DNA of 64,000 nucleotides, taken from NCBI RefSeq assembly GCF_030384885.1, contig NZ_CP128613.1; one strand, written 5' to 3'. This DNA is from Escherichia coli. Its GTDB lineage: Bacteria > Pseudomonadota > Gammaproteobacteria > Enterobacterales > Enterobacteriaceae. The notes under the pieces are model-generated. The model ran no database searches and had not been told where the DNA came from. It was given only the letters and a program-made list of their open reading frames with translations. Shown here piece by piece: positions 21,655-55,143 of the stretch; positions within the stretch are counted from its first letter, which is position 1; every line of letters begins with the position of its first letter. The position numbers were made by a program, and so were the translations under genes.

Positions 21655-22269
21655 TTATCTGTTTGAGCCTAAAGGGATCTCAGGGTCTGGCTCATGAGTA
21701 ATTCTGTTTCGTAAATCTCTGCGAATAATTTCAATGGACCAGAACCAGACTAAATGTCCAAAAATTTCAGAAACATTCTCATACCACGGGAGATCAAACA
21801 GAGGTGGCGTCAGTCCCATGAGAGGGAATGAAATCATATGAACAAAAAGTTGGGCTAAAGCACCTGCCAGTAAGCCCTGCCAGAGTTTAATTTTTGGAAA
21901 TACTTCAGCGACCACACAATAACCGACAGCAAACACTATCGAAAAGATAATGTGCGTAACACCAACCCAGTTAAAGACATGCCCGGCAAAGGTATAAACA
22001 GCCGCATTGGGATCTGTCAGCCCCAGCCAGTCTCGAAGAAAAATATACGGAGGATTGAGAAAATTACGGGAGCAATCAATTTGCCCAGCAGCCCTGATTA
22101 ATGATTCCGGGCCACACGCTGCATTAAACATATCCACCGGGCTACGTGGCGGCAATGGAACTTCAGCCCCCCACTTCACAAATGCGGAAACAACGCCAGC
22201 AATTAGCCCAATGAATGCAGCAAGACCATAACGTCTGCGGTTCGGTGGAGTTTGTTCAAATATATTCAT
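21655..22269 (-). CDS. yagU: inner-membrane protein, DUF1440 family
   Basis: 204-aa ORF, multiple hydrophobic segments; matches recollection of YagU. Confidence 0.85.
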
Positions 22270-22475
22270 ATTTACCCTGTTTGTTTCATTATGTTGTACA
22301 CCTCTTCAGGAGTATTCATAAAACAAGATAAATGTAAAGAACTGTATTGTTTTGTATAATGCAATGGTGACTAATCGCCAATTAATATAAGCACCATCAT
22401 TTCTCCATATTTTTATGTTAGAAGTGACAAGGAGAAATGTAATGTTTCTCTCAGAGAATATAAATCATTCCTTTT

Positions 22476-22500
22476 GCCCACCTTAATGGTGGGCTTTTTT
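22476..22500 (+). terminator. rho-independent terminator of a short transcript
   Basis: GCCCACC-TTAA-TGGTGGGC hairpin followed by TTTTTT; extended -10 TGTATAAT at 22353-22360 about 120 nt upstream. Confidence 0.5.
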
Positions 22501-22730
22501 ATGCAAAACCTGAACACCCTGTGGTATTCCCCTGGCATTATCACTTTCGCGATTAACCAACAGCCAGACCAGCAAACACGCCACTACAGGCACAGCAAAA
22601 TCCATCAGGCTTGCCACACCCCATGCGTGCGGCTCAAAGCCGCCCCGCCATGGCATATTAATCCGCTTACCATTTTCGAACAGCTGATTGGTTTAGTCCG
22701 GTGTTTCCCTGCTTGCACTTAAAAATGAGC

Positions 22731-22820
22731 GGATGGGAAACTCTCGAAATGGTTCGTCGATATGCTCACCTTTCAGTCAGGCATTTCACCGCGCACGCGA
22801 GCAAAATCAAAGGCACATGA
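22731..22820 (+). pseudogene. 3' remnant of a second P4-type integrase gene
   Basis: Encodes ..[14 protein letters not shown].. then stop, matching the C-terminus ([14 protein letters not shown]) of the intact integrase at 34943-36106; lies directly beside the left att copy. Confidence 0.6.
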
Positions 22821-22851
22821 GGAGAATGTGGTTGACTTAAAAACGAGGAAA

Positions 22852-22913
22852 CTTATTGATTTAAATGGTGCCGATAATAGGAGTCGAACCTACGACCTTC
22901 GCATTACGAATTA
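22852..22913. repeat. left 62-bp direct repeat (att copy; duplicates 3' part of tRNA-Thr plus 16 bp)
   Basis: Identical to 36105-36166 by direct comparison. Confidence 0.8.
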
Positions 22914-23282
22914 TAAGAATCCGTTTCTAATTCAAAGCATTACCACATCAACACTGCGCTCACACGTCCCACCACATCAAAACATGTAAAGCCTTGCAAG
23001 CCATTGTGAGGCCTTATGTGTCTCAGTTTTGTCCCACCTTGTATTACGACTTGCATAACCAATGAAGATAAACGTGACGACAAACGACGCAGCAGTCTTC
23101 TTTTCTTTCACACTTTCCCCACTCAGCATGCATACCTTCTACTATAACTGTAGTGAATGTCTGTTATGAGCGAGGAGCGGACTATCTTTCTGTGCTAAGC
23201 ACAGAAGTTTAAATTAATAAATAGAGATTAAGATGTTTATTGGTTACATTGATATTTATAATTTGATTGCCTTGAAATTCCT

Positions 23283-23322
23283 AAGCCGAATTCATGACGT
23301 CTTCATCACATGAATTCGGCTT
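23283..23322 (-). terminator. hairpin downstream of the 447-aa cargo gene (possible terminator)
   Basis: Perfect 14-bp stem AAGCCGAATTCATG/CATGAATTCGGCTT, 12-nt loop, about 30 nt past the stop codon; no clean U-run. Confidence 0.35.
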
Positions 23323-23351
23323 ATGCATAATACTAAGTTGGTTTTATTAAG

Positions 23352-24695
23352 TCATTTCTTTGCCGCGCTTTTATTGCACTTCTTACAGCCTTCAATCAAT
23401 TTTTCAGTTATTATATAATAATAAGGAATGTAAATGTTTAACCCGCAAGTTTTAATCGAATCGAAAGCAAGAACTTTCACAATGGATTCTTCTCCATCTT
23501 TCTCCATTAGCAATATATCACTTAAAGGCAAATCATTAGGATTGTAAATCCTCACATCGCCAGGCTGTCTTTCATAGGCTTCGATGTCATCACCTGGTTG
23601 GCCATAGGCTAAATGAGTGGCTTTAATCCAGTTTATTGGTTCAGCATTTTGACACCAGGAGATTATTTTTTCTAATTTTTCAGGTGTGTAAGCTTTTACA
23701 TAATCTCCATGTTTTTCACATCTACCTAGTTCTGAAAAATGGCCCAGGGTGTATTCATAAGAATAATCACCAGCAGTCAATGGTAGTCTAAAGTATTGCT
23801 GAGGCAATGCCTTCTGGACTTTGGTTTTACTCAGCAAATTAAAGGTGATATCATAAAGTTGATATAGACAAACACCCTCTCGATCTGGATATCCATAAGG
23901 CTTGATGTCAGAAAGCATCTCAATATCAGAATTATAAACACTTGCATAATCATCACTTCCAAACATGAAAAAACCTTTTGATAGAATGAATATTGCATTA
24001 GGAAGAACGTTTTTTTCAAAATTCTGCGAGTGAGTTTTTATTTCTTGTACTATGTCCATCCAATCCATATCAGTATCATAGGCGAAGATAATTCCAAAAC
24101 CATTAGTCTGAATTCTCTCCTCTGAATGTATAAATATGTTCTGATTTATACCATGTTTCTTTAGTTTTTTGAATGAGCGGATATTTTCGAAAGCACTTTT
24201 CAGTTCTTTTTTTGTTAGTTTTGACTTAACCTGAATCACACCATAGCAGTACTCCACAGGTAAAACCTCAAAAATTTCCTGTCGCTGCATAAGCGAAAAT
24301 GAATTAAAAGCATCATAAAAAAGAATGTCGATTTCATTACTGAGATGTCCTGAGGTTGACGCTACACGGACACTTGATTTTGAGATGGCATAGCTTTGCG
24401 GTAAGAGTTTATTTTCATTGAAAAAGCATCTTAAGAGTTCCTCTCTGACAGTACCAACATCTCTTGGATGCTTAATATCTTTCGATATTTCAAAATCTTG
24501 AAGCATTTTCCTCTGTAAGTGAATGAACTCCCTTTCAAGACCATAAAATTCTTTATCTTTAGATCTCAGTTTGCTTGCACGAGAAACTTGATCGGATATC
24601 CATTCCTTTGTGCGAGACTCTCTCTCAGCAAAATCATCACGTTGTTTTTTTACAGCACCGGTCAAGCGTTTTCTTGTGTTTTCATTATCGGACAT
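23352..24695 (-). CDS. hypothetical protein, low GC; possible PD-(D/E)xK / Mrr-like nuclease fold
   Basis: 447-aa ORF; motif ..SNEIDILFYD..(about 25 aa)..YGVIQVKSKL reminiscent of a D...(E/Q)xK nuclease core; AT-rich relative to neighbours; no confident family assignment. Confidence 0.55.
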   Translation of the reverse strand: MSDNENTRKRLTGAVKKQRDDFAERESRTKEWISDQVSRASKLRSKDKEFYGLEREFIHLQRKMLQDFEISKDIKHPRDVGTVREELLRCFFNENKLLPQSYAISKSSVRVASTSGHLSNEIDILFYDAFNSFSLMQRQEIFEVLPVEYCYGVIQVKSKLTKKELKSAFENIRSFKKLKKHGINQNIFIHSEERIQTNGFGIIFAYDTDMDWMDIVQEIKTHSQNFEKNVLPNAIFILSKGFFMFGSDDYASVYNSDIEMLSDIKPYGYPDREGVCLYQLYDITFNLLSKTKVQKALPQQYFRLPLTAGDYSYEYTLGHFSELGRCEKHGDYVKAYTPEKLEKIISWCQNAEPINWIKATHLAYGQPGDDIEAYERQPGDVRIYNPNDLPLSDILLMEKDGEESIVKVLAFDSIKTCGLNIYIPYYYIITEKLIEGCKKCNKSAAKK

Positions 24696-25214
24696 AAATT
24701 AACCTTAAGTTGATAAGTTTTGTGGTGAATTTATAAAGCCTGAGGGATAAACATTTATAGTCTATAAGTTACTATTTATTTGAGATAGTAAGCCAATTTT
24801 ATTAGATGAAGAAACGTTCATAACCTCCTCAACTACGTTTCAATCGGCAACATCGGAGAAGTACACTTTGACAATATATAGCATATTGAAGCAGCTGTAA
24901 CTTAGAGCGCGTACACTCAAGATTTCCCGCTGCGGTGATGGCGGACGACTGCGTTTGATAACTCATTTCCCTCACCAACTATCGGACCTGTTCCTGATTG
25001 ATTATCACATTATAATGTGAGCAATGTCCGCTCCTAGCACATAGCAGTTCTAGAGACAATGGCGTAAAGTCATGGAGAATCGGTGGGAGGATATTCAGTT
25101 TCATTCATGCCGAAATACGGTAAAATCTATAACAGATAGAAATCATTCAATATTCGCACTATCAGAAGCTGGCCAGCCAACCGCGCACGATTTTGCATAC
25201 GACATGCTACGGTT

Positions 25215-25814
25215 TCATTTATCTCCGACCGGAAACTTCTTATACAGTGTCGATACACCAACATCATAGATGATCTCCACCTTCTGGCGAGGAACGCCTG
25301 ATGCAATTAATCGCCCGGCCTGCGCCCTTTGTTCTGGTGTAAGTTTGGGACGACGTCCACCAATTCGTCCCTGTGCGCGAGCAACTTCCAGTCCAGCTTT
25401 TGTTCGTTCAACAATCAGTTCTCGTTCCATTTCAGCCAGGGCACCCATCACATGAAAGAAAAAACGCCCCATCGGTGTGCTGGTATCAATAGCATCCGTC
25501 AGGCTGCGAAAATTAACGCCACGTTCGCGCAACTCCTCAACCAGAATGACCAGATGGACAAGCGTGCCGGGACCGGGTTTATTCAGCGCTTCAATCAGGC
25601 GATCGCGCTGGTCAAAGCAGTCATCTCCCACCACATAAGCTGTGATGGACGGGCGGAAAGTGACTTTTCCCAGATCTTCGGTATAGGGCTTGTCGCGGTT
25701 CGGGTATTCATGTGTTTCCACACGGCGACCGGTTCCCGCACTTTCTTCTTCAACCTTAAACGGCACACCTCGAAATGACGCATCCTGAAGCCTGTCTTTC
25801 CACGTCATATACAC
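25215..25814 (-). pseudogene. chimeric ORF: C-terminal half of a Pin/Gin/Hin-family serine DNA invertase fused to a Mu-N-like (DNA circularisation protein) N-terminus
   Basis: C-terminal about 110 aa (VEELRERG..FRSLTD.IDTSTPMGRFFFHVMGALAEMERELIVERT..GGRRPKLT..) matches invertase C-terminus and HTH; catalytic Ser-containing N-terminus missing; first about 85 aa (WKDRLQDASFRGVPF..GRRVETHEYPNRD..EDLG) resembles phage DNA_circ_N proteins. Confidence 0.6.
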
Positions 25815-25869
25815 TCCGAAAATAAAAAAGCCACCTATTAGAAGGTGGCCTTGTAATGAATTTTATTAA

Positions 25870-26400
25870 TTAGCGAGTCAGAAACAACGAATCTTTATAC
25901 TTTTGCTGTTGTTCATTTAAATACTTAGCTGTTTCATCGCTGGCAAATGGAAATATTACCGTATTTTTAGGCATGGTAATTTCTTTTTTGTCCAGCGTCA
26001 GAGTAAACATAGGAACATACTGAGCAGAGTAACGCACCGCAGAAACGAGCTCTAGTTTAGACTCTTCAATAACACTTAAATTATCCAGGCTAACTTTCTC
26101 TTCATCTTTTTTCTTTGACGCATTTAAAGTTTTTATTACTTTATTTAATTTCTCCTGAAAATCCTCCTTAAAGTTTTCAGGATTGCCGTCGACAACAAGA
26201 ATCTGTTCACCCTGATTATCTGGAAAAATAATCTTTGCACTTATCAATTTATTTTCTTTATAAACATCACCAAGTTTTATGGCTCCTCCAGATAACTGAA
26301 TAATATGTTCATCTTTAAAGGAGATGTTGCCAGAGATTATGAGAGATGAAAAAATAGCCGCTGCTCCAAGAATTACACTTGCTGTGATATAGCCTTTCAT
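25870..26400 (-). CDS. hypothetical membrane-anchored/secreted protein, low GC
   Basis: 176-aa ORF with N-terminal hydrophobic segment MKGYITASVILGAAAIFSSLIISG; Lys/Glu-rich; AT-rich. Confidence 0.5.
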   Translation of the reverse strand: MKGYITASVILGAAAIFSSLIISGNISFKDEHIIQLSGGAIKLGDVYKENKLISAKIIFPDNQGEQILVVDGNPENFKEDFQEKLNKVIKTLNASKKKDEEKVSLDNLSVIEESKLELVSAVRYSAQYVPMFTLTLDKKEITMPKNTVIFPFASDETAKYLNEQQQKYKDSLFLTR

Positions 26401-26491
26401 TTTTCGCCTATTAACATTTTTCTAAATGTGCATTAATTCTATCACTCTATTTATGACTTACAACCAGCAATACATGTGAGGGGAATCCTGG

Positions 26492-27623
26492 CTACCAAAA
26501 TCGGGTATAGCCAACATCGTGATTTATATCAATGCCACTGGAGCGTGTTTCCGTAACCCGCATACCTGGTGGCATATTTATAAATGATACCTTGATCTCA
26601 CCATCAACTTTTGGCGCGGTAGCTTTATTAATCATGAAGGGATTCGGGCCTGTGGCATCGGAGGCGTTGTTTGCCTGAGCCGGATCCACCGCCGGATAAG
26701 GAGTGTATCCCCGTGCCGGTATTCCCGTCTTCGATATTGTTGAAGGTGGCGCGATCGGTGTTCTGCACCATGTGCAACGGCACCCGGAACAGACGACAGA
26801 TTTCTTCAAGCTGAAACTTGCGGGTTTCCAGGAACTGGCTGTCCTCGGCGTTCAGCGCCATCGACTTCCAGTCCAGCCCCATCTCAAGGATCATCGGGCG
26901 GTGAGCATTACCAAGCCCGGTGTGACGCTCCTCAAAATCTTTCTTCAGGCGCTCATAAGCCTGATCCGACAGCGTCTGTTCTGTACGCAACACACCCGAC
27001 GTCACCGCGCCATTGCTGAACAGTCTGGCCCCGTGCTCTTCGGTCGCAGCTGCCAGCGATATTGCCTCACGGGCATAGGCGATGGGATTCAGTCCCACCA
27101 GACCGTCCAGCGTCAGCGTGCGCACATGCCAGATATCCTCCTGGCTCAGTACATCCGTGGAGCCATCCGGGAATGTGACCTGATAGACCGGCTCCCAGCT
27201 ACTGTTAAGCTTCGGTACCACACAGCCGGGATCGACGGGCAGCAGTTCAGCCACTTCGCCAAATGCTTTCACTTTGTAGGCGTAAAAGTTTCCCCGCAGG
27301 CACAGACAGGTGACCACCAGCTCCCAGAACTCCTGCGGCGTCATATAGCCATTGGGATGCGTGGAGATCAGCTTATGCAGACGTTCGCCAGTGGCTCTCT
27401 GCTTCAGGCTGCCGTTCAGGTGATACAGGTTGCAGGGCAACATCCCGACCGACTCCGCCAGCACCCTGACACAGGAAAAAACCGCCGTCAGTCGCATGGC
27501 CCGCTGGCTGCTGATCTGCTTTCCGGTATAGGTGTCGTAGGACAACCCGATGGCATCCGCCAGCTCTGCTGGCGTGGTCACCGGTGCGTCACTTTTTCGT
27601 TGAAATAATCCCGAAAAGAACAC
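26492..27623 (-). pseudogene. phage portal protein (HK97-family), frameshifted and 3'-truncated
   Basis: 331-aa ORF with portal-like N-terminus continues in another frame as a 105-aa ORF (26492-26809); normally followed by protease/capsid genes, which are absent. Confidence 0.6.
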
Positions 27624-27805
27624 TATTTACCTCCGCCGACAGACAGCTGTGTACGATCGAGATATCGCGCCACCAGCCACGACCAGAACAGGCACAGCGC
27701 CCCGGCAACAACAAAACCCGCCGGGGGATAAATCAGCCAGGCACCATATGCCAGCAAAAGCGCACCCAGCACGCCCACCAGAGGCGCGAGAATCAGCATG
27801 ATCAT
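27623..27805 (-). CDS. small hydrophobic phage protein
   Basis: 60-aa ORF, two hydrophobic stretches, between terminase and portal. Confidence 0.3.
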
Positions 27806-27816
27806 AATTACCTCAG

Positions 27817-29550
27817 TTAAAGCGAGCGGATCCCGTAGGACTCAATGTGGTCAGACAGCGTGTCTTCTTTCTCGTACAGCATGGCTCTGCCAACCGCCAT
27901 AATCAGCGCAACTGCACCATCGATTTTGTTTTCCGCCTGCTCTTTGACGGGTTTCACCACATCATCGTTACCCGGAATGGTTTTGCCGACCACGTTGCCG
28001 ATACACCAGGTCATGATGGGATTGCCGTCATGATGAAAGCGCCCCGATTCAATTGCCGCTTCCAGCTCTTTCATCGGGTCGGACATGTTGGTGTAGTTCT
28101 GAATGATAGTGATGGGGTTCAGGTCTTCATCAGCAAGGTCATGTGACAACCCGGTCGCCCCGAAGGGGTCGATGGGTGACTCACTGACCGGGCTGATTTT
28201 GTTCGCCGCTTTGGCCTCCTCGAGGATGTAGCGATAATCCACCTCCGCACCATCGGTAACGGTCAGAACGCCCATTTCCACCCATTTCTGAAAGCGTTCG
28301 GCTGTCCGTCGATCTTCATTTTTCTCGACGCTGTACACCGTGTCATACGGTACCCAGAAACGCGGGGCCACACTGTAGTAATGCGTTTTACCGTCAATCT
28401 CGCGGGTATAAAGTCGCGCCATGCTGTTCATATCCAGCTTACGCGCCAGGTCAAAGGCCAGAATGCACGGCTGCCCCTCGAACTGCTCAAGAGTCAGTGA
28501 TTTATCCTCGCATCTCTGCCAGCTCACCAGGTTGAAATACGCCGAACGCGCCGACACCCAGATATTGAGGTGTTTTGTTTTAAAGACGTTTGCCAGACGG
28601 GCGTTATTTTTCGCACGTTGCTGCTGGCTTAACAAAAACTCGCGATAAACCGACACACCGATATTCGGGTTAGCTTTTTCAAGTACCTGCGGGTCGGTCC
28701 AGTCGTCGCCTTCGTCAACGGTATAGATGATCCCGAACAGTTCATCGTTGGGCACCGAGCCGTTGAGCATCTCGATGACTTCCCGCCGTTTGTCGTAGCA
28801 CGGCCCCTCAATGTTGTACCCGGCGGTGGTAATGGCCCACATCAGTGGCTGGCGTCGCGCCCCCATCCCGGTAAGCATCGTGGTGTAAAGCGCATCTGTG
28901 GCGTGCTCGTGATATTCATCCACCACCGCACAGTGGGGTGATGAACCATCACCGGGGTTACCGATCAGCGGTTCAAACCGCGCACCATCCTCCGGACGGT
29001 TCATGTTTGAGGCGTTAACCTCAATCCCGAACGCTTCCGTCAGCATGGGTGTGCGTTTACACATCAGTCGTGCCGGACGAAAGACTTCCCATGCCTGTTT
29101 CTCCGTCGTGGCACCGGAATACACTTCCGCGCCGAACTCGTTATCACAGGCAAAACAATACAGGGCGACACCGGCAGAGATTGCCGATTTGCCGTTCTTA
29201 CGGGGGATTTCGGTATACACCTCACGGAAGCGGCGCAGCCGGGAGCCTTTATTGACCCAGCCAAACGCGCAGCAGATCACAAAGAGCTGCCACGGCTCCA
29301 GCGTGATGGGCATCCTCTTAAATGCCCACTCACCCTTGGTGTGCGGCAACAGCTGAATAAATTTCGCGGCCCGTTCAGCCAGGTCCTTGTCGAAGCGGTA
29401 ACGAAACGACTTACTTTTTTCCTCCATCAGGTCATCAAGATGGCGCTGGCAGGCCTGAATCACAAACTGGCAGGCCACAATCTTTCCGTGCACGACATCA
29501 CGGGCATACTGATTGGCAGCATTTACGTTGGGGTAAGATTTCCGGCTCAT
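27817..29550 (-). CDS. phage terminase large subunit
   Basis: 577-aa ORF with ATPase Walker-like region and C-terminal nuclease region; overlaps small-subunit stop (ATGA). Confidence 0.9.
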
Positions 29551-30050
29551 GATTCGATGATTTTCAGAAACGGGTTAGTGGCTTTCTTCTGCCCCGCCAG
29601 GCCAATCAGACGCTGGCGGCTGCTGGGGTCGAGTCCGAGCATTGCCCCCGTACTGCTCATCTCGGACTCCTGTTCTTTTTTGGCGGTCAGCTCCGGATTT
29701 TTGACCATACCGCCCATTGCACCGGTGATGGTGTTGCCCTGTCTGGCAATATTTTTCACGGCACGTCGCCAGAACTCGTAGGCCACGCACCACCGCTCAA
29801 GCACCGCGAGGTCAGTCACGCACAGCAGGCCCTGACCGCAGAGTTCTTTAGTTGTCAGTTGCCACATGATCGTGGCGAGAGGGAGATCTTCTTCAGCGAA
29901 CCACTCCGGTGGCTCAACACCTTTGATGGGCGTAAAAACAGGTTCATCTTTATTCAGGGCTCGCTTGCCGGGGTTTCCGGCCAGCGCCTTGCGCGCCGTT
30001 GGCTTGGGGCGACGCCCGGAACGCCCCGCCGTTCCAGCCATATGCGGCAC
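29547..30050 (-). CDS. phage terminase small subunit (P27-like)
   Basis: 167-aa ORF, basic N-terminus [22 protein letters not shown], immediately upstream of large subunit. Confidence 0.8.
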
Positions 30051-30166
30051 TCCTGGTTAAATTTCATTTTTCGCGGGTATAAAAAAACGATGGGGCGGGC
30101 AGTCCGGAAGACGTCAGGTCACAGGGATTTGACCCGCCCCTCCCCTCTGGCAGTGGGAACTGGTTC

Positions 30167-30517
30167 TTACTTCAGCCGTTCACGGGCCGTCTTCGCCTTA
30201 TGACACGGCCAGCACAAACTCTGCAGATTACTGTCGACATCAGTGCCGCCATGCGATTTAGGGATGATGTGGTCAACGGTCTTCGCCTCACGCACCACAC
30301 CAGCACGCAGACATAACTGACACAGGCCTTTGTCACGCTTCAGGACACGCGCGCGGATACTGTCCCACTTCGAACCGTAGCCGCGCTGATGACGGGATTG
30401 TCCAGGTTTGTATTGCTTCCAGCCTTCGCTTTTGTGGCTTTCGCAGTAGCCTGAAGGGTCCGTGGTTGTAAAGCGGCAGCCGCGAACACGGCAGGCTTTT
30501 GGGGTTCGTGGGGGCAT
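30167..30517 (-). CDS. HNH endonuclease (phage packaging-associated)
   Basis: 116-aa ORF with CxxC...HIIPKSHGG..D..NLQSLCWPCH HNH motif. Confidence 0.85.
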   Translation of the reverse strand: MPPRTPKACRVRGCRFTTTDPSGYCESHKSEGWKQYKPGQSRHQRGYGSKWDSIRARVLKRDKGLCQLCLRAGVVREAKTVDHIIPKSHGGTDVDSNLQSLCWPCHKAKTARERLK

Positions 30518-31041
30518 ATGTACTCCAATGAAGAAACCAGCGAAATAGCTGCCTTCATTCGTAGTAAACCTTTTTCATCAACGCAGTAATGGATTCTTTG
30601 AAGAGTCGCGATCAATACAACTCACTAATGGAGAGACTTGTCTCACGCATGAGACAAATTTCCCGTTTGATTTAATGGACACTATAGAGGGACAGAATGC
30701 CTTCCTCACTCGAATCACATCAATTAAGGAGGTTCAACATGTTTCATTCCACAAGTCATCAGGCTGTAATTATGGCAGCATCAGTTTGTGCCAAAGACCT
30801 TTTCCGCTTCACTTTGAGCCTGATTCATTTCTACCTGACCGGCTCGCCTCTATCTTTTTAATCCCCGCTTTATCCAAATTGCATTGCCATAATGCCGACA
30901 ACACACTGACATTCAAATCCAGACTACCTCCAATAGTCTGACCGTACACCTATATAGTTTTAATTTTCATCAATCCATTTAACTATCGTTTAATTGTTGT
31001 CACATAGGATTCTGCCGTTTTTAACAATGCAGGATAATAAG

Positions 31042-31335
31042 ATGAAAAAAATGTTGTTTTCTGCCGCTCTGGCAATGCTTATTACAGGATGTGCTCAACA
31101 GACGTTTACTGTTGGAAACAAACCGACAGCAGTAACACCAAAAGAAACCATCACCCATCATTTCTTCGTTTCGGGAATTGGACAGGAGAAAACTGTTGAT
31201 GCAGCCAAAATTTGTGGCGGCGCAGAAAATGTTGTTAAAACAGAAACCCAGCAAACATTCGTAAATGGATTGCTCGGTTTTATTACTTTAGGCATTTATA
31301 CTCCGCTGGAAGCGCGTGTGTATTGCTCACAATAA
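31042..31335 (+). CDS. bor: Bor/Iss-family outer-membrane lipoprotein
   Basis: 97 aa from internal Met; lipobox LITGC; closely matches recollection of lambda Bor. Confidence 0.9.
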   Translation: MKKMLFSAALAMLITGCAQQTFTVGNKPTAVTPKETITHHFFVSGIGQEKTVDAAKICGGAENVVKTETQQTFVNGLLGFITLGIYTPLEARVYCSQ

Positions 31336-31366
31336 TTGCATGAGTTGCCCATCGATATGGGCAGCT

Positions 31367-31828
31367 CTATCTGCACTGCTCATTAATATACTTCTGGGTT
31401 CCTTCCAGTTGTTTTTGCATCGTGATCAGCCTCTCTCTGAGGGTGAAATAATCCCGTTCAGCGGTGTCTGCCAGTCGGGGGGAGGCTGCATTATCCACGC
31501 CGGAGGCGGTGGTGGCTTCACGCACTGACTGACAGACTGCTTTGATGTGCAACCGACGACGACCAGCGGCAACATCATCACGCAGAGCATCATTTTCAGC
31601 TTTCGCATCAGCTAACTCCTTCGTGTATTTTGCATCGAGCGCAGCAACATCACGCTGACGCATCTGCATGTCAGTAATTGCCACGTTCGCCAGCTTCAGT
31701 TCTCTGGCATTTTTGTCGCGCTGGGCTTTGTATGTAATGGCGTTATCACGGTAATGATTAACCGCCCATGACAGACAGACGATGATGCAGATAACCAGAG
31801 CGGAGATAATCGCGGTTAATCTGTTCAT
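31367..31828 (-). CDS. Rz: i-spanin Rz
   Basis: 153-aa ORF, N-terminal TM, coiled-coil; closely matches recollection of lambda Rz. Confidence 0.9.
31426..31608 (-). CDS. Rz1: o-spanin Rz1 (embedded in +1 frame of Rz)
   Basis: 60-aa ORF with lipobox VVGC and proline-rich PPPPP segment, fully inside Rz. Confidence 0.8.
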
Positions 31829-32301
31829 ACCTCAATCTCTCTGACCGTTCCGCCCGCTTCTTTGAATTTTGCAATCAGGCTGTCAGCCTTATGCTCGAAC
31901 TGACCATAACCAGCGCCCGGCAGTGAAGCCCAGATATTGCTGCAACGGTCGATAGCCTGACGAATATCACCGCGATCAATCATCGGTAAAGCGCCACGCT
32001 CTTTAATCTGCTGCAATGCCACTGCGTCCTGGCTTTTGGGGGAGAAGTCTTTCAGGCCAAGCTGCTTACGATAGGAATCCCACCAACGGGAAAGAAGCTG
32101 GTAGCGCCCGGCTGCTGTTGATTTGAGTTTTGGGTTTAGCGTGACAAGTTTGCGAGGGTGATCGGAGTAATCAGTAAATAGCTCTCCGCCTACAATGACG
32201 TCATAACCATGATTTCTGGTTTTCTGCCGTCCGTTATCCGTTCCTTCTGACCATGCCACCATATCGAGGAAAGCTTTACGCTGAGGATTAAGATTTTGCA
32301 T
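31825..32301 (-). CDS. R: endolysin, lambda R-type lytic transglycosylase
   Basis: 158-aa ORF closely matching recollection of lambda R (..[31 protein letters not shown]..). Confidence 0.9.
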
Positions 32302-32605
32302 TTTTCACCCCTGTCAGTCGTTCCCAGAAGTACGTCAGTGCAACCGAACCCATCGCACCACTAATCCCCGCTGTCGCGAGAATCATGTAAATACTGAATC
32401 CACTTTCGATGCTGATCAGGCCACCAATAACACCGGTGAATCCTGATACCACTATCTGAGCCAGAGCATTTATCCAACTCCACGTTGCTTTACTCTGCTT
32501 CACATCTATCAGGTAGCGGACTAGACCGCCCCAACCTGCGATGATCAGCAAAACGAGCCAGAACGCTCCGGCAAGGCTCTCTTTTTCGTGCATATGAATA
32601 GCCAA
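32288..32605 (-). CDS. putative holin
   Basis: 105-aa ORF with hydrophobic helices, overlapping start of endolysin; not lambda S-like. Confidence 0.55.
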   Translation of the reverse strand: MAIHMHEKESLAGAFWLVLLIIAGWGGLVRYLIDVKQSKATWSWINALAQIVVSGFTGVIGGLISIESGFSIYMILATAGISGAMGSVALTYFWERLTGVKNAKS

Positions 32606-32711
32606 TGTTTCGCCGCCGACAAAAGGCCGGGACGTTAAATGTCAGAAATCAGGCTCACGGGGTAATTTAACGACAAAGCACGGAGTTGATGCTCCCCGCA
32701 AGCCTGGAATA

Positions 32712-32734
32712 AAAAAGCCAGCATGTAGCTGGCA
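32712..32734 (-). terminator. intrinsic terminator of short late-promoter transcript (tR'-like)
   Basis: On minus strand GCCAGCTACATGCTGGC hairpin followed by TTTTTT, between Q and the holin. Confidence 0.5.
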
Positions 32735-32914
32735 ACAGAGGGTTAAGCAATATCAACTCAACAGCTGAAGACACCCTGGCTGGGGTACATTGGAAGGATA
32801 CTCACCGCCCAGAAACAGAAAAGCCCAAGGCTTTAAACCTCGAGCTTGAATTTGGATTACTGCCAGTGCGTACAACATTGGCAAAATATCAGATTTATAT
32901 GAAATATATGCTTT

Positions 32915-33604
32915 TTAATCCAGTTTTGCAATATTTTGCTGTGAAAATGTCGCCTTTTGTTTTGAACGTGTTCTCGTTAGAAGCAATAAAGCTTCGCTAT
33001 CAAGCTGTAGAAAAATGTGCTTCATTGCAACCCAGCGTTCAGTGAATGTCTCAGACCAGTTTTTTGATGTCACTCCCACCAGTGACGCCAGTTCCTGGTA
33101 TTCATAAGCCTCACGCCCTGCCAGTTCGCTCTTCACATCCTGTGCCGCCAGCCAGATCAACTTCTTCAGGCGTTCCAGTGTCTTACCTGCAATTTTTCTG
33201 GTACCCAACAGAGTCTTAAACTCGCTCCATGCCCACTGCGTTATGGCAACCTGATGCTCCCAGCGAATATTTTCACTGTAACTCCACAGCAACCATGCTT
33301 TCTGATGCTCATCGAGAGACAGAACAGCGCGGCGCCATGAAGAGGTTGAAAACTCGACCGGACTGATCAGGGCGACAGATGAACCTTTTGCGTACGACTG
33401 TTTACCGGAAATCGGCAGATTATCCAGCATAATAATCTTGCCAGTTACCTCATCCAGAATGCGTCGCTTCTTTCGTTTGTATGTACCAGTATCAAATTGT
33501 GCATGCTCCAGCCAGGCTTCAAGCTGGCCTTTCGTTGCTCCGCTCAAGTCAGCGGTAGCCACCATGAGTTGCTCGCGGACATATTGTAAATATTGGGTAT
33601 TCAT
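32915..33604 (-). CDS. late-gene antiterminator Q-like protein
   Basis: 229-aa ORF directly upstream of the lysis cassette and downstream of rusA; position-based, not lambda-Q-like in sequence. Confidence 0.55.
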   Translation of the reverse strand: MNTQYLQYVREQLMVATADLSGATKGQLEAWLEHAQFDTGTYKRKKRRILDEVTGKIIMLDNLPISGKQSYAKGSSVALISPVEFSTSSWRRAVLSLDEHQKAWLLWSYSENIRWEHQVAITQWAWSEFKTLLGTRKIAGKTLERLKKLIWLAAQDVKSELAGREAYEYQELASLVGVTSKNWSETFTERWVAMKHIFLQLDSEALLLLTRTRSKQKATFSQQNIAKLD

Positions 33605-33737
33605 GCGGCAGCTCCTTTCAGTGTTTTGGCGTAATTCCTCAGTATTCGGTAATCGGTCAAAACAGAACCGGGGAAACGATATAAGCGCAGATGCCCCCAG
33701 CGGTGGCGAAGAAGTTCTGCCATATAAAACTCAAACA

Positions 33738-34100
33738 TCATTCATTCCCCATTTCGGTGATGGTCAGTTCCAGCCTCCCACCTTTGGTAACAGGCATCTT
33801 CACAACACGGTAATCAACGACCTGAGCATCATCCAGCCAGAAACCTGCTTTAGTGAGTGCGTCAAAAGCGGCTTTTTGCAGATTATCCAGGTCACGGCGA
33901 CGGCGATCCGGCATGTGGCACTCAATGCGGATTTTCACAGGCATAGCCAGGCCGATATCCAGCATTGCGTTTTTAATGATTCGGGCGACGTTATCGCGGT
34001 ATGCCTGCCCCTCTGCGCTGACGTGCGTGCGCCCGCGATTATGGCGGTAATAGCGATTATTGCTCGGAGGCCAGGGTAATGTGATGCTGTAGGTATTCAC
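33738..34100 (-). CDS. rusA: Holliday junction resolvase RusA
   Basis: 120-aa ORF matching recollection of RusA (..[31 protein letters not shown]..). Confidence 0.85.
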
Positions 34101-34387
34101 GCCTTAATAACCCCCTCTTTCAGCCAGATAACCTGTGTTCTCGCCATACCTTCCAGCGCGCATTCTTTTGCATATGCAGCATCGACAAAATGTGTGCGGC
34201 GGTCGATTTCGTCGTGGCAGGCAGAACATGCAATGGTGGCAATCAGGTCTGGCGGTTTGGTACCGGTGCCGCACAATCCAGTCAGCCGGATATGTGCCAG
34301 TACAGACGTTTCAGGGTTGCCATTACATACGCCAGGGATTCTTACCTGGCATTCCCGACTACGCGCTGCTTTTCTCAAATCAGCCAT
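34097..34387 (-). CDS. phage protein, Cys-rich (DUF1364/YbcO-like)
   Basis: 96 aa from [10 protein letters not shown]; four Cys; nin-region position. Confidence 0.5.
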
Positions 34388-34550
34388 GATTCCTCCTTGC
34401 TGCCAGTCGCAACCATTTTTTATCAACCAGGCTGGCGGTATATCCGAGCAGTGTTGGTATTTCGGAAGGCTTCAGCTCCGGTTTACGCTTACGACGATTT
34501 GGTACTCTGTAGATGTGTCCGTTCATGACACGAATAAGCGGTGTAGCCAT
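34380..34550 (-). CDS. NinE-like small protein (56 aa)
   Basis: [56 protein letters not shown]; stop overlaps next start; not in ORF track. Confidence 0.45.
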   Translation of the reverse strand: MATPLIRVMNGHIYRVPNRRKRKPELKPSEIPTLLGYTASLVDKKWLRLAARRNHG

Positions 34551-34831
34551 TACGCCTCCTGTTTGTCGCGGAGCTGCTGGAACTCGCAGCTCTGCGGAAT
34601 AGTCAGGTGGCAGCCAATATTCATCGCCCAGGCTTCAACCTTACACAGGAAGACATACATCTCTCCGGTATCAAGATCGGAGGTATGGCGTAACGACTGG
34701 ATAGTGGTGATATCACCGGTTACGACATCAACCAGGTCTTTGGTTTCATAACCGAGATATGTGTGTTTGAGAGCATCTTTTACCCAAGCTGGAGTGGCGA
34801 ACGTTTTACAGGCAACACGCAAAGACCCCAC
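34550..34831 (-). CDS. phage nin-region protein, possibly 5'-truncated
   Basis: 93-aa ORF abutting the integrase upstream region. Confidence 0.35.
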   Translation of the reverse strand: MGSLRVACKTFATPAWVKDALKHTYLGYETKDLVDVVTGDITTIQSLRHTSDLDTGEMYVFLCKVEAWAMNIGCHLTIPQSCEFQQLRDKQEA

Positions 34832-34942
34832 TAAACCAAAATCTCCTTACCTCACAACGCGACAAGCCTGCATTGCGGCGCTTCAGTCTCCGCTGCATAC
34901 TATCAAGGTGAGCGCGGGTGATGGCATAACAGAGGAAAGAAA

Positions 34943-36106
34943 ATGTCACTCTTCCGCAGAAGTGAAATATGGTACGCCAGTTTCACATTGCCGAACGGTA
35001 AAAGATTTAAACAGTCTCTTGGAACAAAGGACAAAAGGCAGGCGACAGAGCTCCATGACAAGCTAAAGGCTGAAGCATGGCGGGTCAGCAAACTTGGTGA
35101 AATACCTGATATGACGTTTGAGGAAGCGTGTGTCAGGTGGCTCGAAGAGAAAGCACATAAGAAATCACTGGACGATGACAAAAGCCGGATCGGATTCTGG
35201 CTTCAACATTTCGCAGGGATGCAACTAAGAGACATCACTGAATCAAAAATTTATTCAGCGATGCAGAAAATGACAAACCGGCGTCATGAGGAAAACTGGA
35301 AACTCAGGGCAGAAGCATGCAGAAAAAAAGGGAAACCTGTTCCAGAATACACGCCAAAACCAGCGTCCGTTGCAACGAAGGCTACGCATCTTTCATTTAT
35401 AAAGGCCCTGCTAAGAGCCGCAGAGCGTGAATGGAAAATGCTGGATAAGGCACCAATTATTAAAGTGCCTCAACCGAAGAATAAACGTATCCGCTGGCTG
35501 GAGCCTCATGAAGCACAAAGGCTGATTGATGAATGTCCGGAGCCATTAAAGTCTGTTGTTGAATTTGCACTGGCAACAGGCTTAAGACGCTCGAACATCA
35601 TCAACCTTGAATGGCAACAAATAGACATGCAGCGCCGGGTGGCATGGATAAACCCGGAAGAGAGTAAATCAAACCGCGCAATTGGCGTTGCGCTGAATGA
35701 TACTGCATGTCGCGTATTGAAAAAACAAATCGGGAATCATCACCGTTGGGTATTTGTATACAAGGAAAGCTGTACCAAACCAGACGGAACGAAAGCGCCA
35801 ACGGTCAGGAAGATGCGGTATGACGCAAACACAGCCTGGAAAGCGGCGCTGAGACGAGCAGGTATTGATGATTTCAGATTTCACGACTTGAGACACACCT
35901 GGGCAAGTTGGCTGGTTCAAGCCGGAGTCCCGTTGTCAGTGTTACAGGAAATGGGAGGCTGGGAGTCTATCGAAATGGTTCGTCGATATGCTCACCTCGC
36001 ACCTAATCACCTTACCGAACATGCACGGCAAATAGACTCGATCCTGAACCCATCGGTCCCAAATTTGTCCCAGTCAAAAAATAAGGAAGGTACTAATGAT
36101 GTGTAA
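34943..36106 (+). CDS. int: tyrosine integrase (P4/DLP12 IntD-like)
   Basis: 387-aa ORF with HDLRHT...YAHL catalytic tail, ending 15 bp before the tRNA 3' end. Confidence 0.9.
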
Positions 36107-36166
36107 CTTATTGATTTAAATGGTGCCGATAATAGGAGTCGAACCTACGACCTTCGCATTACGAAT
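36105..36166. repeat. right 62-bp direct repeat (att copy overlapping tRNA-Thr 3' end)
   Basis: Identical to 22852-22913. Confidence 0.8.
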
Positions 36167-36196
36167 GCGCTGCTCTACCAACTGAGCTATATCGGC
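36121..36196 (-). tRNA. thrW: tRNA-Thr (anticodon CGU)
   Basis: Reverse complement reads GCCGATATAGCTCAGTTGGTAGAGCAGCGCATTCGTAATGCGAAGGTCGTAGGTTCGACTCCTATTATCGGCACCA; cloverleaf-compatible, CCA end. Confidence 0.9.
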
Positions 36197-36310
36197 CCTG
36201 AAAGGACATGTTCACGAGCGTGAATCACGGTGGACAAGGTTAAAACTAACCGGGCGATGCGTCAATGGCCTTGTGAATCAAATGGCTACTTTTGCATCAC
36301 CCGGTTTTAT

Positions 36311-37564
36311 TTACGCACGAATGGTGTAATCACCAATGCCGATCCACTTGTAAGTGGTCAGTGCTTCCAGCCCCATTGGGCCACGCGCGTGGAGTTTTTG
36401 TGTGCTTACCGCCACTTCCGCACCCAGACCAAACTGGCCGCCGTCGGTAAAACGCGTAGAGGCGTTAACGTAAACAGCGGACGAATCCACTTCGTTAACA
36501 AAACGCTGGGCATTACGCATATCGCGGGTCAGGATCGCATCGGAGTGTTGCGTACCGTGTTCACGAATATGGGCGATGGCATCGTCAAGATCGCTGACGA
36601 TTTTGACGTTCAAGTCTAATGACAGGAACTCATCGTCATACTCTTCGGCTTTAACAGCCACCACCTTCGCGGGGCCTGCCTGCAACTGCGCCAGCGCAGT
36701 TGCGTCAGCGTGTAATGTCACGCAGCTTTCCGCCATTTGCTTGCTTAATGCGGGCAGGAAGCTATCTGCGATGTTTTTATTTACCAGCAACGTTTCTACC
36801 GTATTACACGTGCTCGGGCGCTGAGTTTTCGCGTTGACAATCACTTTCAATGCTTCAGCGATCTCTGCACTTTCATCAACGTAAATATGGCATACGCCTA
36901 TACCACCTGTGATTACCGGAATCGTCGACTGTTCGCGGCACAGTTTATGCAACCCAGCCCCGCCGCGTGGGATCAGCATGTCGATGTATTTATCCATACG
37001 CAGCAGTTCACTGACCAGCGCACGGTCAGGATTATCAATCGCCTGCACGGCACCCGCCGGTAAACCGCAGGATTTCAGGGCGTCCTGAATCACCGCCACC
37101 GTTGCAGCGTTAGTGCGACAGGTTTCTTTGCCGCCGCGCAGGATCACCGCGTTACCGGTTTTCAGGCACAGTGAAGCAACATCAACCGTCACGTTCGGGC
37201 GCGCTTCATAAATTACACCAATCACCCCCAGCGGTACGCGACGGCGTTCCAGACGCAGGCCGCTGTCCAGCACCCCGCCATCAATTACCTGCCCCACTGG
37301 ATCGGCGAGGTTACATACCTGGCGCACATCATCGGCAATGCTTTTCAGCCGTGCGGGCGTCAGTGCCAGGCGGTCAAGCATCGCTTCGCTAAGGCCATTG
37401 GCACGCGCGTCAGCAACATCCTGGGCATTAGCATTGAGGATGCTTTCGCTTTGTGCTTCCAGTTCATCGGCGATTTTTTCCAGCACGCGATTTTTTTCGC
37501 GACTGGAGAGTTGCGCTAAATTATACGAGGCTTGCTTCGCGGCAATGCCCATTTGTTCCAGCAT
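36311..37564 (-). CDS. proA: gamma-glutamyl phosphate reductase
   Basis: 417-aa ORF, recognised ProA sequence. Confidence 0.95.
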
Positions 37565-48559: not shown

Positions 48560-49138
48560 TTAACGCGTTCGCTGCGAAAGCACCTGCTGCTTATCCAGCT
48601 TTTTCACCAACGGCTGCACCACTTTATCGCCATGCTGACCAAAATATTGATACAACGTATCGGACGCGCTTTTGGTGAGCACCATAATCTCAATGCGCCG
48701 ATTGCCCGCGCTTTGTGGATTTTTGGCATCCAGCAGCATCTGGTCCGCCATTGCGCTCACCCGCGCTTCGCCCTGTAACACCGGCTGCAACTGGCGGTCC
48801 ACCGCGCCGCCGGAAAGTGCGGTGCGTTTGTCCAGCATCTGCGTGAGCGCCGTACCCTGCGCCTGCCCGCTCTTACGCTGGCTATGACGATAATCGAGCA
48901 ATTGCTGCTCCAGTTGCCCGAGATAGTGATCCGCCTGCTGCAACGTGGTGAGCTGATCGTTAAGCTGCACGCTGTAACGCTGCGGGCGAGTGGTAATCAG
49001 CGGCGAGGCCGGATATTCACTCGCCGTCGCCGGGAGCTTTTGCCGCACCGCCTGAGTGGGCGCAACGGTTGACGACGATACCGCAGCGCTATGCGCGCCG
49101 CCGGTGGCGAGTGATGAAGATGTAAGTCCGACCTGCAT
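48560..49138 (-). pseudogene. remnant ORF carrying a MotB/OmpA-type C-terminal motif (LafU/MbhA-like), probably a deletion-fusion product
   Basis: 192-aa ORF ending ..NRRIEIMVLTKS.. (OmpA-like peptidoglycan-binding signature) but lacking MotB N-terminal TM region; sits where the flagellin/motor (laf) cluster would be. Confidence 0.45.
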
Positions 49139-49154
49139 ACTGTTCCTGAAAGAG

Positions 49155-50084: not shown

Positions 50085-50098
50085 TTTCGCGCTCCCGC

Positions 50099-51475: not shown

Positions 51476-51544
51476 GTTGGATCCTTACCGGTAAATCGTG
51501 CCGGATAAAAGCGGCGTGAAGTTGGGGATTCTTAAGTTCCGTAA

Positions 51545-51895
<351 letters not shown>

Positions 51896-51896
51896 C

Positions 51897-52196
51897 TCAT
51901 TTATGCTTCGGCGACAACTGCTTCACAATCATCGCCGCGATCCCTATCCCGTGCTGCTGCGCCAGGGTGTTACACAACTCATCGTCATAAAACCCCTGCA
52001 TCATGCGCACCGAATCGCTGTTAAATGGGTTATCTTTCGAATCAAACAACTCGTTGGTTTTACGCATCTCTTTCAGCATGTTGCGTAAAAAAATCGCCTC
52101 AAACTGTTCGGCGGCCTGCTTAATATCATTGGCCTGAACCTTCGGCCCCATTAACGCATCGCTGCCGTCAATCCCGCCGCTGGCGTTGACTTTCAT
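51897..52196 (-). CDS. lfgJ: FlgJ-like rod-binding protein, short form without muramidase domain
   Basis: 99-aa ORF; ..QFEAIFLRNMLKEMRKT.. aligns with FlgJ N-terminal rod-binding domain. Confidence 0.7.
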   Translation of the reverse strand: MKVNASGGIDGSDALMGPKVQANDIKQAAEQFEAIFLRNMLKEMRKTNELFDSKDNPFNSDSVRMMQGFYDDELCNTLAQQHGIGIAAMIVKQLSPKHK

Positions 52197-53296: not shown

Positions 53297-53310
53297 TGCA
53301 CTCTCCGGCA

Positions 53311-53976: not shown

Positions 53977-54045
53977 GTTCTGCCTGTTTAGTGTTGCAGG
54001 CCACGGGGTGGCCGGTTGTTTGGTGGGTTGGAGCGGGTTTGTTCC

Positions 54046-54158
54046 CCCTCACCCTAACCCTCTCCCCAAAGGGGCGAGGGGACCGATCGAGCGCGTTTTT
54101 ACATCGTGCTCCACTTTTCTCCCTCTCCCTGTGGGAGAGGGCCGGGGTGAGGGCATCA
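54046..54158. repeat. about 112-bp GC-rich palindromic intergenic repeat, copy 1
   Basis: Terminal inverted motifs CCCCTCACCC...GGGTGAGGG and internal hairpin CCCTCTCCC-TGT-GGGAGAGGG; reverse complement of copy at 61282-61392. Confidence 0.65.
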
Positions 54159-54179
54159 GGCCGCACCGCCCTTAACGCC

Positions 54180-55140: not shown

Positions 55141-55143
55141 CGG

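Follow-up and report, generated by a model that had tools for sequence, protein, structure and literature searches.

A defective prophage that still carries a complete set of lysis genes raises the question whether the host has kept these genes for its own benefit, or whether too little time has passed for them to be lost. Such a locus occurs in the window, by which we mean the whole stretch of 64,000 nucleotides of Escherichia coli DNA that was analysed. A first-pass annotation described full-length genes for a holin, R endolysin and Rz with embedded Rz1, an oppositely oriented bor and an upstream Q, all in an otherwise gutted prophage, and it took their retention as a sign of selection (domestication). 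The genes are indeed present and uninterrupted, essentially at the coordinates given, and the prophage is dead: BLAST breakpoints reveal three internal deletions, through which it has lost its regions for tail, head, immunity and replication. The step from retention to selection found no support. It is highly probable, at roughly 0.85, that a temperate phage integrated at thrW was truncated very recently and that the region is its late-control and lysis segment, in which the cassette is intact through youth.

The prophage remnant measures 13,255 bp, lies at thrW beside proA, and is bounded by perfect 62-bp direct att repeats. Its borders and outer parts comprise the following features:

22850-22911: attL, the left boundary of the element; its 62 bp repeat the 3' part of thrW together with 16 nt
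23352-24695, minus strand: gene for a DUF6602 protein of 447 aa (Pfam PF20247) with a PD-(D/E)xK / NucC-like nuclease domain
25215-25814, minus strand: chimeric ORF of 199 aa formed by deletion 1, with the junction at about 25555
25870-26400, minus strand: hypothetical gene, 176 aa
34808-35066, plus strand: xis, without approximately its first 30 codons
34943-36106, plus strand: intact P22-type integrase gene, 387 aa (Pfam Phage_integrase)
36105-36166: attR, within and adjoining thrW, with proA coming next
36121-36196, minus strand: thrW, tRNA-Thr(CGU)

The attL repeat matches 36105-36166 perfectly, and strain 2013C-4282, whose site is empty, has just one copy of it. The DUF6602 gene at the attL end is an accessory (moron-type) gene that shows 99.4% identity to the corresponding ends of related prophages, and its product gave PADLOC matches to PD_DExK (2e-27) and NucC (1.7e-16). 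At the other end, the alignment with the prophage of PSS-16 begins within its 116-aa HTH gene at the xis position, from which it follows that xis of the window is truncated. The 176-aa gene has a 99.9% match to prophages with the order hypothetical protein, DNA circularization protein, tape measure protein, and neither Pfam nor PADLOC gave a match for this ORF; in some related prophages it is positioned between the DNA-circularisation and tape-measure genes. When positions 22000-37000, including the leader between the late promoter and its terminator, were scanned with Rfam for known small RNAs, thrW was the only match.

Through the three deletions the window lacks about 28 kb that is present in intact thrW prophages, and each junction shows an overlap of 2-3 nt. 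Illegitimate deletion events took away the genes for tail fibres and baseplate, those for head and tail shaft, and the entire immunity, replication and recombination region. At deletion 1 a DNA-circularisation N-terminus is joined in frame to the C-terminal part of a Pin-type invertase, and the Pfam domains DNA_circ_N, Resolvase and HTH_7 occur in one 199-aa frame, for which PADLOC returned no match. Deletion 2 joins the 3' end of the tape-measure gene to the portal gene at about 26728, the position at which homology to intact prophages begins, and deletion 3 joins ybcN to xis at 34807-34809. What remains between these two endpoints is an uninterrupted block of 8.1 kb (26728-34809), in which the lysis region is flanked by:

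26628-27623, minus strand: truncated portal gene, 298 portal codons followed by a foreign tail
27623-27805, minus strand: ymfR, intact
27817-29550, minus strand: terL, intact (Pfam TerL_ATPase/TerL_nuclease)
29547-30041, minus strand: terS, intact (Pfam Terminase_4)
30167-30517, minus strand: HNH endonuclease gene, intact (Pfam HNH)
within 33601-34809, minus strand: the nin genes ylcG, rusA, ybcO and ninE, all intact
end of 33601-34809, minus strand: ybcN, with its 5' part missing

The lengths of ymfR, terL, terS and the HNH gene equal those in intact prophages, whereas the portal protein of the window covers profile positions 2-251 of 321 of Pfam Phage_portal, an intact portal having 413 aa. 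The only broken genes are those cut by a deletion endpoint; all other ORFs of the block are full length. They include the packaging module (terL, terS, HNH), which is useless because the head genes are gone.

An intact HNH-TerS-TerL set (cos-side packaging genes), next to Q and the lysis genes and in an element with perfect att repeats and an intact integrase, would also suit a satellite-like way of life, in which Xis, replication functions and virions come from a related helper phage, and the element is excised, packaged and released. Related complete phages that might act as helpers are common, the cassette being contained in 752 complete genomes, and excision would account for the precise empty site in a strain with nearly identical flanks, although the latter equally fits phage integration after the strains had split. 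Such an element would have to cope with a truncated xis and with the absence of a replication origin and replication genes, and every copy for which flanks are visible is at the same proA-thrW locus. Moreover, the junctions cut genes (portal, ybcN, pin and DNA-circularisation), as random deletions do, rather than delimiting an evolved layout. We therefore regard a helper-dependent satellite as very improbable.

The lysis genes of the retained block are contiguous and on one strand, with overlaps between holin and R (32288-32301) and between R and Rz (31825-31828):

32288-32593, minus strand: holin, 101 aa from an ATG, or 105 aa from a TTG at 32605
31825-32301, minus strand: R endolysin, 158 aa, of the lambda lytic transglycosylase type
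31367-31828, minus strand: Rz inner-membrane spanin, 153 aa (Pfam Phage_lysis, PF03245, 1e-53)
31426-31608, minus strand: Rz1 outer-membrane lipoprotein spanin, 60 aa (Pfam Rz1, PF06085, 3e-20)

The endolysin is 94.9% identical to lambda R and 100% identical to R of strain TK3896. A Pfam search of R gave no matches at E <= 0.001, and its identity was settled by a PDB sequence search, in which lambda lysozyme (1AM7) was matched over residues 2-158 with E = 9e-102; the catalytic Glu19 is present, as read in the motif WSEGT. Rz1 is embedded in Rz in a different frame, with the lipobox VVGC readable in its sequence, and the two spanins are 98.0% (Rz) and 98.3% (Rz1) identical to their lambda counterparts. 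Pfam places the holin in the P1 LydA family (Phage_holin_3_3, PF16083, E = 8e-22); it shows three hydrophobic segments by inspection, and has 100% identity both to WP_000544528.1 and to the PhiR47_2 holin, the latter from a phage record in which the host is given as E. coli C. Assignment to the lambda S family was rejected, in view of 17.7% identity to lambda S and the Pfam assignment to LydA. Nor is there a dual start of the S107/S105 type, the stretch between the two candidate starts having no Lys or Arg.

Thus, an R-family endolysin, a two-component spanin and the expected gene arrangement were found, but not a lambda S holin, and the label "lambda-type" that the cassette had been given holds for R, Rz, Rz1 and Bor (92-98% identical to lambda) but not for the holin, which is LydA, nor for Q and the late promoter pR', which are those of phage 82. 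The likeness to the lambda lysis region extends to the order S-R-Rz/Rz1 with its overlaps, to the position of bor antisense within the late operon, and to about 94.5% DNA identity over positions 30988-32284 of the window. Further downstream the two differ again, since the genes that follow in the window are an HNH-TerS-TerL set of the P27/HK97 type where lambda has Nu1/A. The source phage is a mosaic, lambdoid in the nin/Q/lysis region and of the Mu/SfV-like myovirus kind in the morphogenesis region.

Upstream of the holin, endolysin and spanin genes are the elements that would control them:

32915-33604, minus strand: Q antiterminator, 229 aa, of the phage-82 type (Pfam Phage_antiter_Q, PF06323, 1e-94)
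32872-32931, minus strand: pR' of the phage-82 type, located by a promoter scan
32811-32847 (hairpin 32847-32821), minus strand: second terminator-like hairpin, at about +50 to +86 of the leader
32733-32708, minus strand: intrinsic tR'-like terminator between Q and holin

Q has 213 of 229 residues (93%) in common with Q of phage 82 and is 100% identical to Q of the PSS-16 prophage; identification as lambda Q was rejected at 15.6% identity. The promoter has a -35 element TTGCAA at 32931-32926 and a -10 element TATATT at 32908-32903, and the predicted start is the A at 32896 (AAA), from where the leader reads AAATCTGATATTTTGCCAATGTTGT. The leader contains an extended -10-like pause element TGaTATTTT at +6 to +14, GCC at +15-17, and the pause U at +25 (32872). 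The published features of 82 pR' are an extended -10-like sigma70 pause element, GCC at +15-17 and pause U+25 (PMC5001585), and the leader of the window fits this description, the comparison being with described features and not with the full sequence. For the complete sequences of 82 pR', the Q-binding element (QBE) and t82, the literature search yielded described features only. The pR' region is invariant across relatives.

Two predicted hairpins with T-runs lie between pR' and the first late gene. The tR'-like terminator, which had been placed at 32712-32734, was found again; it has a 6-bp GC-rich stem, GCCAGC-TACAT-GCTGGC, at 32733-32717, followed by TTTTTTATT, is situated at about +164 to +189 of the late leader, occurs in both the minimum-free-energy and the centroid fold, and is invariant in seven related loci. 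The upstream hairpin has a 12-pair stem followed by TTCTGTTTCT, and relatives show substitutions inside this stem.

In comparison with phage 82 (X92588; the 82Q system of Roberts and Hochschild), the window has, in addition to the closely similar Q, a Rus protein that is 95.8% identical, the same gene order ybcN-ninE-ybcO-rusA-ylcG-Q, and a leader with the hallmarks of 82 pR', including the AAA start. It differs by 16 amino acids in Q and by deletion of the upstream part, which comprises orf33 with its putative promoter and the beginning of ybcN.

From what is known of these families, the 82-type pR' would fire constitutively, and RNA polymerase would pause at +25 and stop at the leader terminators, so that only short RNAs should be produced. 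If Q of the 82 type were supplied, polymerase would pass into holin, R and Rz/Rz1, and lysis would follow. The remnant Q is without every upstream early promoter, and since these promoters are lost the cassette should be silent, except upon read-through or when a matching Q comes from a co-resident phage. Transcripts from thrW/proBA may extend into the nin-Q genes, since only one weak terminator-like site was found on this strand. The opposite strand, antisense to the late operon, carries:

31042-31335, plus strand: bor/iss, 97 aa (Pfam Lambda_Bor, PF06291, E = 6e-31)

Its product has the lipobox LITGC, as read in the sequence, and by family it is an outer-membrane lipoprotein. The protein is 91.8% identical to lambda Bor and 100% identical to WP_000738423.1, which is named "Iss", and exactly this protein was found on at least 1000 contigs. 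By its sequence, Bor/Iss is a member of the serum-resistance lipoprotein family. In lambda, bor is a lysogenic-conversion gene for which phage induction is not needed, and expression of bor/iss independent of the late operon is to be expected here, as in lambda lysogens.

These properties are the basis for the idea of domestication, in which the host keeps Q-pR'-holin-R-Rz/Rz1 and bor for some benefit (controlled autolysis with release of eDNA, vesiculation, cell-wall turnover or serum resistance) and selection has filtered the deletions. All five genes and the regulatory sites are intact, and bor/iss could act without phage induction. Absence of cassette and bor from all three deletions is also the outcome that is expected under selection. 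Furthermore, a precedent can be found in DLP12 of K-12 (essD-rrrD-rzpD/rzoD-borD; PMC7918800, PMC3105296), where lambdoid lysis genes and bor are likewise present in a defective prophage, beside rusA/nin genes. This prophage is long established in K-12 and has a holin of the phage-21 type. Host phenotypes have been reported for the DLP12 lysis module, which has served in print as the example of a "domesticated lysis module" (PMC7918800), and by analogy a benefit of the window cassette is conceivable. DLP12, however, is at another locus, and the remnant described here is strain-restricted and essentially undiverged from intact phage.

The adjoining genes speak against domestication, since in the same block terL, terS, HNH, ymfR, ylcG, rusA, ybcO and ninE are just as full length as the lysis genes. 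In a simulation with three deletions of the observed sizes placed at random, the cassette was spared with P of about 0.16, which is unremarkable, and the probability that all ORFs are intact was about 0.9. The ratio dN/dS, which had been proposed as a check, is low for lysis and non-lysis genes alike (0.00-0.22 for lysis genes, 0.02-0.10 for portal, terminase and HNH genes), and it is uninformative on domestication because it reflects selection during phage life and not after inactivation. Relaxed selection on Rz was also considered, in view of six window-specific changes, three of them nonsynonymous, relative to 10 relatives, and the same comparison showed a seemingly divergent HNH allele. 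The idea was dropped; these "private" changes of Rz and HNH are not specific to the remnant, since the exact Rz allele and that of HNH occur in intact prophages and the phage contig L024 matches both.

The age of the remnant is most relevant in this respect. Block 26728-34809 is identical to L024, a complete-looking phage contig, at 8080 of 8082 positions, without gaps; one difference falls in terL (29423), and the other is synonymous and affects Q (33584). For the lysis cassette this amounts to one synonymous difference from an intact phage, and consequently its intactness carries no information. The lack of divergence also removes the power to detect selection, the absence of which is not proven thereby. 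The same genes are found in the intact thrW prophages PSS-16 and NADC1036, in the 36.7-kb phage contig SRR28282016_61 and in PhiR47_2, which share the order Q-holin-R-Rz-bor-HNH-terS-terL-portal at 97-99.98% identity and have identical holin, Bor, Rz1 and Q proteins; R is likewise 100% identical to an intact-prophage protein. What distinguishes these phages is that they have complete early, head and tail regions, which the window lost.

The distribution of the remnant leads to the same conclusion. A search of 5,426 complete E. coli genomes found not one of the three deletion junctions. The closest strain, 2013C-4282, has an empty thrW site with flanks that are 99.98-99.99% identical, and contigs with the same ProA allele that were examined mostly have an empty thrW site or a different occupant. 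Conservation at the orthologous locus after inactivation was thus not found. A match of 99.98-100% between the flanks and those of 2013C-4282 also led us to reject the possibility that the window stems from a divergent Escherichia species, which had been considered because of 96% identity to the PSS-16 flanks. Copies of the remnant, essentially identical, were found in four Logan runs and in GCA_036346665.1. The Logan contigs have 0-1 mismatch to the window, and the GCA_036346665.1 contig spans frsA-proA and continues via int into the remnant.

These copies also bear on the suspicion that the deletions are mis-joins of a complete prophage, for which nothing can be brought forward beyond the general possibility of assembly artefacts with repeated prophages. 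Since the truncated portal ORF and the neighbouring junctions are present in four independent Logan assemblies and in GCA_036346665.1, an artefact can practically be dismissed. As judged from these sequence comparisons, the remnant is a very young, recently truncated prophage. Its confinement to a few near-identical isolates, together with the loss of the promoters upstream of Q, makes domestication unlikely. The chance is equally small that the unit and bor/iss are useful to this clone as a trans-activatable lysis or vesiculation module, or through a small RNA from the pR'-tR' leader, with deletions filtered by selection. Activation may then come from transcription that continues beyond thrW/proBA, or from a co-resident prophage of the 82 type that supplies Q, and StxS of Stx phages, a regulatory small RNA, is a model for the short leader RNAs. 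Recent truncation accounts for the intact cassette, which is situated inside the retained block and has hardly mutated since the deletions took place.

Every module of the element was known already, i.e. R, Rz, Rz1 and bor of lambda, the LydA holin, Q and pR' of phage 82, and the P22-type integrase at thrW. Prophage remnants made by deletion are commonplace in E. coli, and this one is an ordinary, recently truncated prophage built of known modules. The locus would gain importance if the few carrier isolates needed the cassette or bor/iss for some phenotype, to which the sequence gives no pointer. The difference of only 2 in 8,082 bases from a phage contig marks the remnant as very young, and the lesson for the method is that intact ORFs in a defective prophage signal domestication only if the remnant is old and its neighbouring genes have decayed.

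The lysis cassette lies in a prophage integrated at thrW, a tRNA-Thr gene (36121-36196) adjoining proA and proB, where a perfect direct repeat of 62 bp (22850-22911 and 36105-36166) bounds an element of 13,255 bp. Alignment with the intact thrW prophage of E. coli PSS-16 and with other prophages revealed three internal deletions.

Internal deletions of the thrW prophage
Deletion 1, at about 25555: joins the Pin invertase gene and the DNA-circularisation gene, making an in-frame chimeric ORF
Deletion 2, at about 26728: joins the 3' end of the tape-measure gene and the portal gene, which keeps 298 of 413 codons
Deletion 3, at about 34808: joins ybcN and xis; all immunity, replication and recombination genes and approximately the first 30 codons of xis are gone

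The first-pass annotation had regarded this prophage as dead, which is correct, since it has lost about 28 kb from a length estimated at 41 kb. The BLAST segments that meet at each junction share only 2-3 nt, as expected if the deletions arose by illegitimate recombination. An assembly artefact as their source was rejected, as independent assemblies agree. The ORF made by deletion 1 (25215-25814, minus strand, 199 aa) fuses the N-terminus of the DNA-circularisation protein in frame to the C-terminal half of a Pin-type invertase with its HTH domain; it is also called in another assembly (L015) and is probably a chance product of the deletion. At the attL end, an intact gene (23352-24695, minus strand) encodes a DUF6602 protein of 447 aa with a PD-(D/E)xK / NucC-like nuclease domain (PADLOC: PD_DExK, 2e-27; NucC, 1.7e-16). 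It is 99-100% identical in other thrW prophages and may be an anti-phage defence gene carried by the prophage.

All genes previously named in the cassette were recovered when the ORF list was combined with a Pfam scan and protein comparisons.

Genes of the lysis cassette
31042-31335, plus strand: bor, 97 aa, Lambda_Bor (Pfam)
31367-31828, minus strand: Rz, 153 aa
31426-31608: Rz1, 60 aa, embedded within Rz in another frame
31825-32301, minus strand: R endolysin, 158 aa, E = 9e-102 against lambda lysozyme 1AM7, Glu19 present
32288-32593, minus strand: holin, 101 aa, P1 LydA family (PF16083)
32915-33604, minus strand: Q, 229 aa

All six are free of stop codons and frameshifts and equal in length to their counterparts in intact prophages. 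The earlier description of the cassette as lambda-type is appropriate for R, Rz, Rz1 and Bor (94.9, 98.0, 98.3 and 91.8% protein identity to lambda), but not for the holin and Q, which are unrelated to lambda S and Q (17.7 and 15.6%). Instead, Q is 93% identical to Q of phage 82, and the nin genes upstream of it (ybcN-ninE-ybcO-rusA-ylcG) share the phage 82 arrangement. Holin, R, Bor, Rz1 and Q all have 100% identical counterparts in intact prophages, and Bor, Rz1 and the holin are each found with exactly this sequence in at least 1000 contigs. The cassette is present in 752 of 5,426 complete E. coli genomes as well as in PhiR47_2, a phage record that names E. coli C as the host. In PhiR47_2 (3904-4379) and in CP050198.1 (9528-10004), both otherwise complete-looking, R is called as two ORFs, which would imply a frameshift or sequencing error; this lysis gene looks worse in these "intact" records than in the window remnant. 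The spacer between HNH and bor (30518-31041, 524 bp) shows lambda homology only in the last 54 nt before bor and carries an annotated gene in none of the relatives. A simple scan gave no plus-strand promoter for bor. Lambda bor is expressed in lysogens, and the bor/iss gene described here is probably expressed on its own.

The retention of these genes had been taken to suggest selection, i.e. domestication by the host. Evidence of a general kind that selection acts on defective prophages was reportedly presented by Bobay et al. in PNAS in 2014. The cassette is, however, part of a single uninterrupted block of 8.1 kb between deletions 2 and 3 (26728-34809; portal', ymfR, terL, terS, HNH, bor, Rz/Rz1, R, holin, Q, ylcG, rusA, ybcO, ninE, ybcN'), in which all ORFs except those interrupted by a deletion endpoint are full-length, including the genes for terminase and HNH and those of the nin region, all of no use to a phage that lacks head, tail and replication genes. 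By exact-protein look-up a complete-looking phage on a 36.7-kb contig (SRR28282016_61) was reached, with O/P replication genes, a full portal gene, and head and tail genes. It matches the whole block at 8080 of 8082 positions without gaps, the differences being at 29423 in terL and at 33584, a synonymous change in codon 7 of Q. Divergence this low predicts about 0.55 substitutions in the cassette coding sequence, and in a simulation using our own rough assumptions for the share of disabling mutations all five ORFs escaped disruption in about 90% of cases without selection. When deletions matching the three observed ones in size were placed randomly and without overlap in a 41.1-kb prophage, the 2.56-kb cassette remained untouched with P of about 0.16. 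The dN/dS values against ten relatives, proposed earlier as a check, are indeed low for the lysis genes, bor and Q (0.00-0.22), but equally low for portal, terminase and HNH (0.02-0.10); such values reflect selection during phage life and do not separate domestication from its absence.

None of the 5,426 complete E. coli genomes carries any of the three junctions. The remnant carriers found were four sequencing-run assemblies, with 0-1 mismatch to the window, and GCA_036346665.1, which indicates one shallow clone. These data show that intactness is the default expectation at this locus. Domestication is neither required nor supported, and we consider it improbable, although the data are compatible with a benefit of the cassette because too little time has passed for selection to leave a signature. 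The finding is already known in kind, since all modules belong to described families (lambda lysis region, phage 82 Q unit, LydA holins, Bor/Iss, P22-type thrW integrase) and the idea that a defective prophage may harbour a domesticated lysis module has been published for DLP12 (PMC7918800; see also PMC3105296); the specific evolutionary claim is unsupported here.

Regarding expression, a promoter-like site overlaps the Q stop on the minus strand (32931-32903; TTGCAA, 17 nt, TATATT), and with the A at 32896 taken as +1 the leader transcript starts AAAUCUGAUAUUUUGCCAAUGUUGU. An extended -10-like element (TGaTATTTT, +6 to +14), GCC at +15-17 and U at +25 are features described for the sigma70-dependent pause at phage 82 pR' (PMC5001585); the function of 82 Q at a site like 82 pR' is also described (PMC4914094). 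There are two terminator-like hairpins, one at 32847-32821 with a 12-pair stem and one at 32733-32717 followed by TTTTTTATT. The latter was flagged before as a terminator between Q and the holin, an observation that is upheld by the hairpin and by the leader, which from the pause element on does not vary across seven related loci; the sole private substitution of the window in this part is at 32789, between the two hairpins. Judging from the family, pR' would be constitutive and give terminated short RNAs, and Q-dependent read-through would carry transcription into the lysis genes. From the leader between pR' and the terminator (32708-32896, minus strand), short RNAs of two sizes would be expected, one of about 75-86 nt and one of about 189 nt. 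The fold of this leader is more stable than those of shuffled controls (z = -3.9), and no Rfam family matches it. An analogous leader RNA is StxS of Stx phages (PMC7547250), and the pR' leader RNAs could act as sRNAs. The 5' context of Q is gone, the region upstream of ybcN having been deleted together with the putative promoter annotated there in phage 82. Upstream of Q on its strand now lie antisense xis and int, followed by thrW and proBA, and since only one, weak, terminator-like site was found there, low-level read-through into Q is possible. Most likely, the cassette would be silent, yielding only short pR' leader RNAs, and trans-activatable by an 82-type Q.

The nearest strain by flanks, 2013C-4282 (2 mismatches in 19,967 bp; 1 mismatch and 1 gap in 12,660 bp), has an empty thrW site with one att copy. 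Such a clean empty site, together with int, att and terminase genes, is suggestive of a helper-dependent, satellite-like element, but the remnant has no replication module, its xis is truncated, the junctions cut through genes and it occurs at a single locus only, which makes this explanation highly implausible, even more so than domestication. Beyond dinB, the window departs from 2013C-4282 (48764-60000), with genes for FlgK, FlgI, FlgG/F, FlgE, FlgD and flagellin-like proteins; this is apparently a Flag-2 lateral-flagella cluster, which in 2013C-4282 is cut down to lafU and a truncated flhA. Among the contigs read with an identical ProA protein, an empty thrW was the commonest state shown, and several have other islands. 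Three of them (L018, L021 and L023) come from close relatives and carry quite different ones at thrW, among them one that pairs an integrase with a reverse transcriptase and one in which an integrase accompanies AlpA and AntA. Just outside attL (22723-22807) lies part of another, older integrase gene, which shares 73% identity with the 3' end of the present int; because this fragment is also present in 2013C-4282, thrW has been occupied and vacated before. The variety of islands in close relatives shows that the integration hot spot at thrW turns over rapidly.
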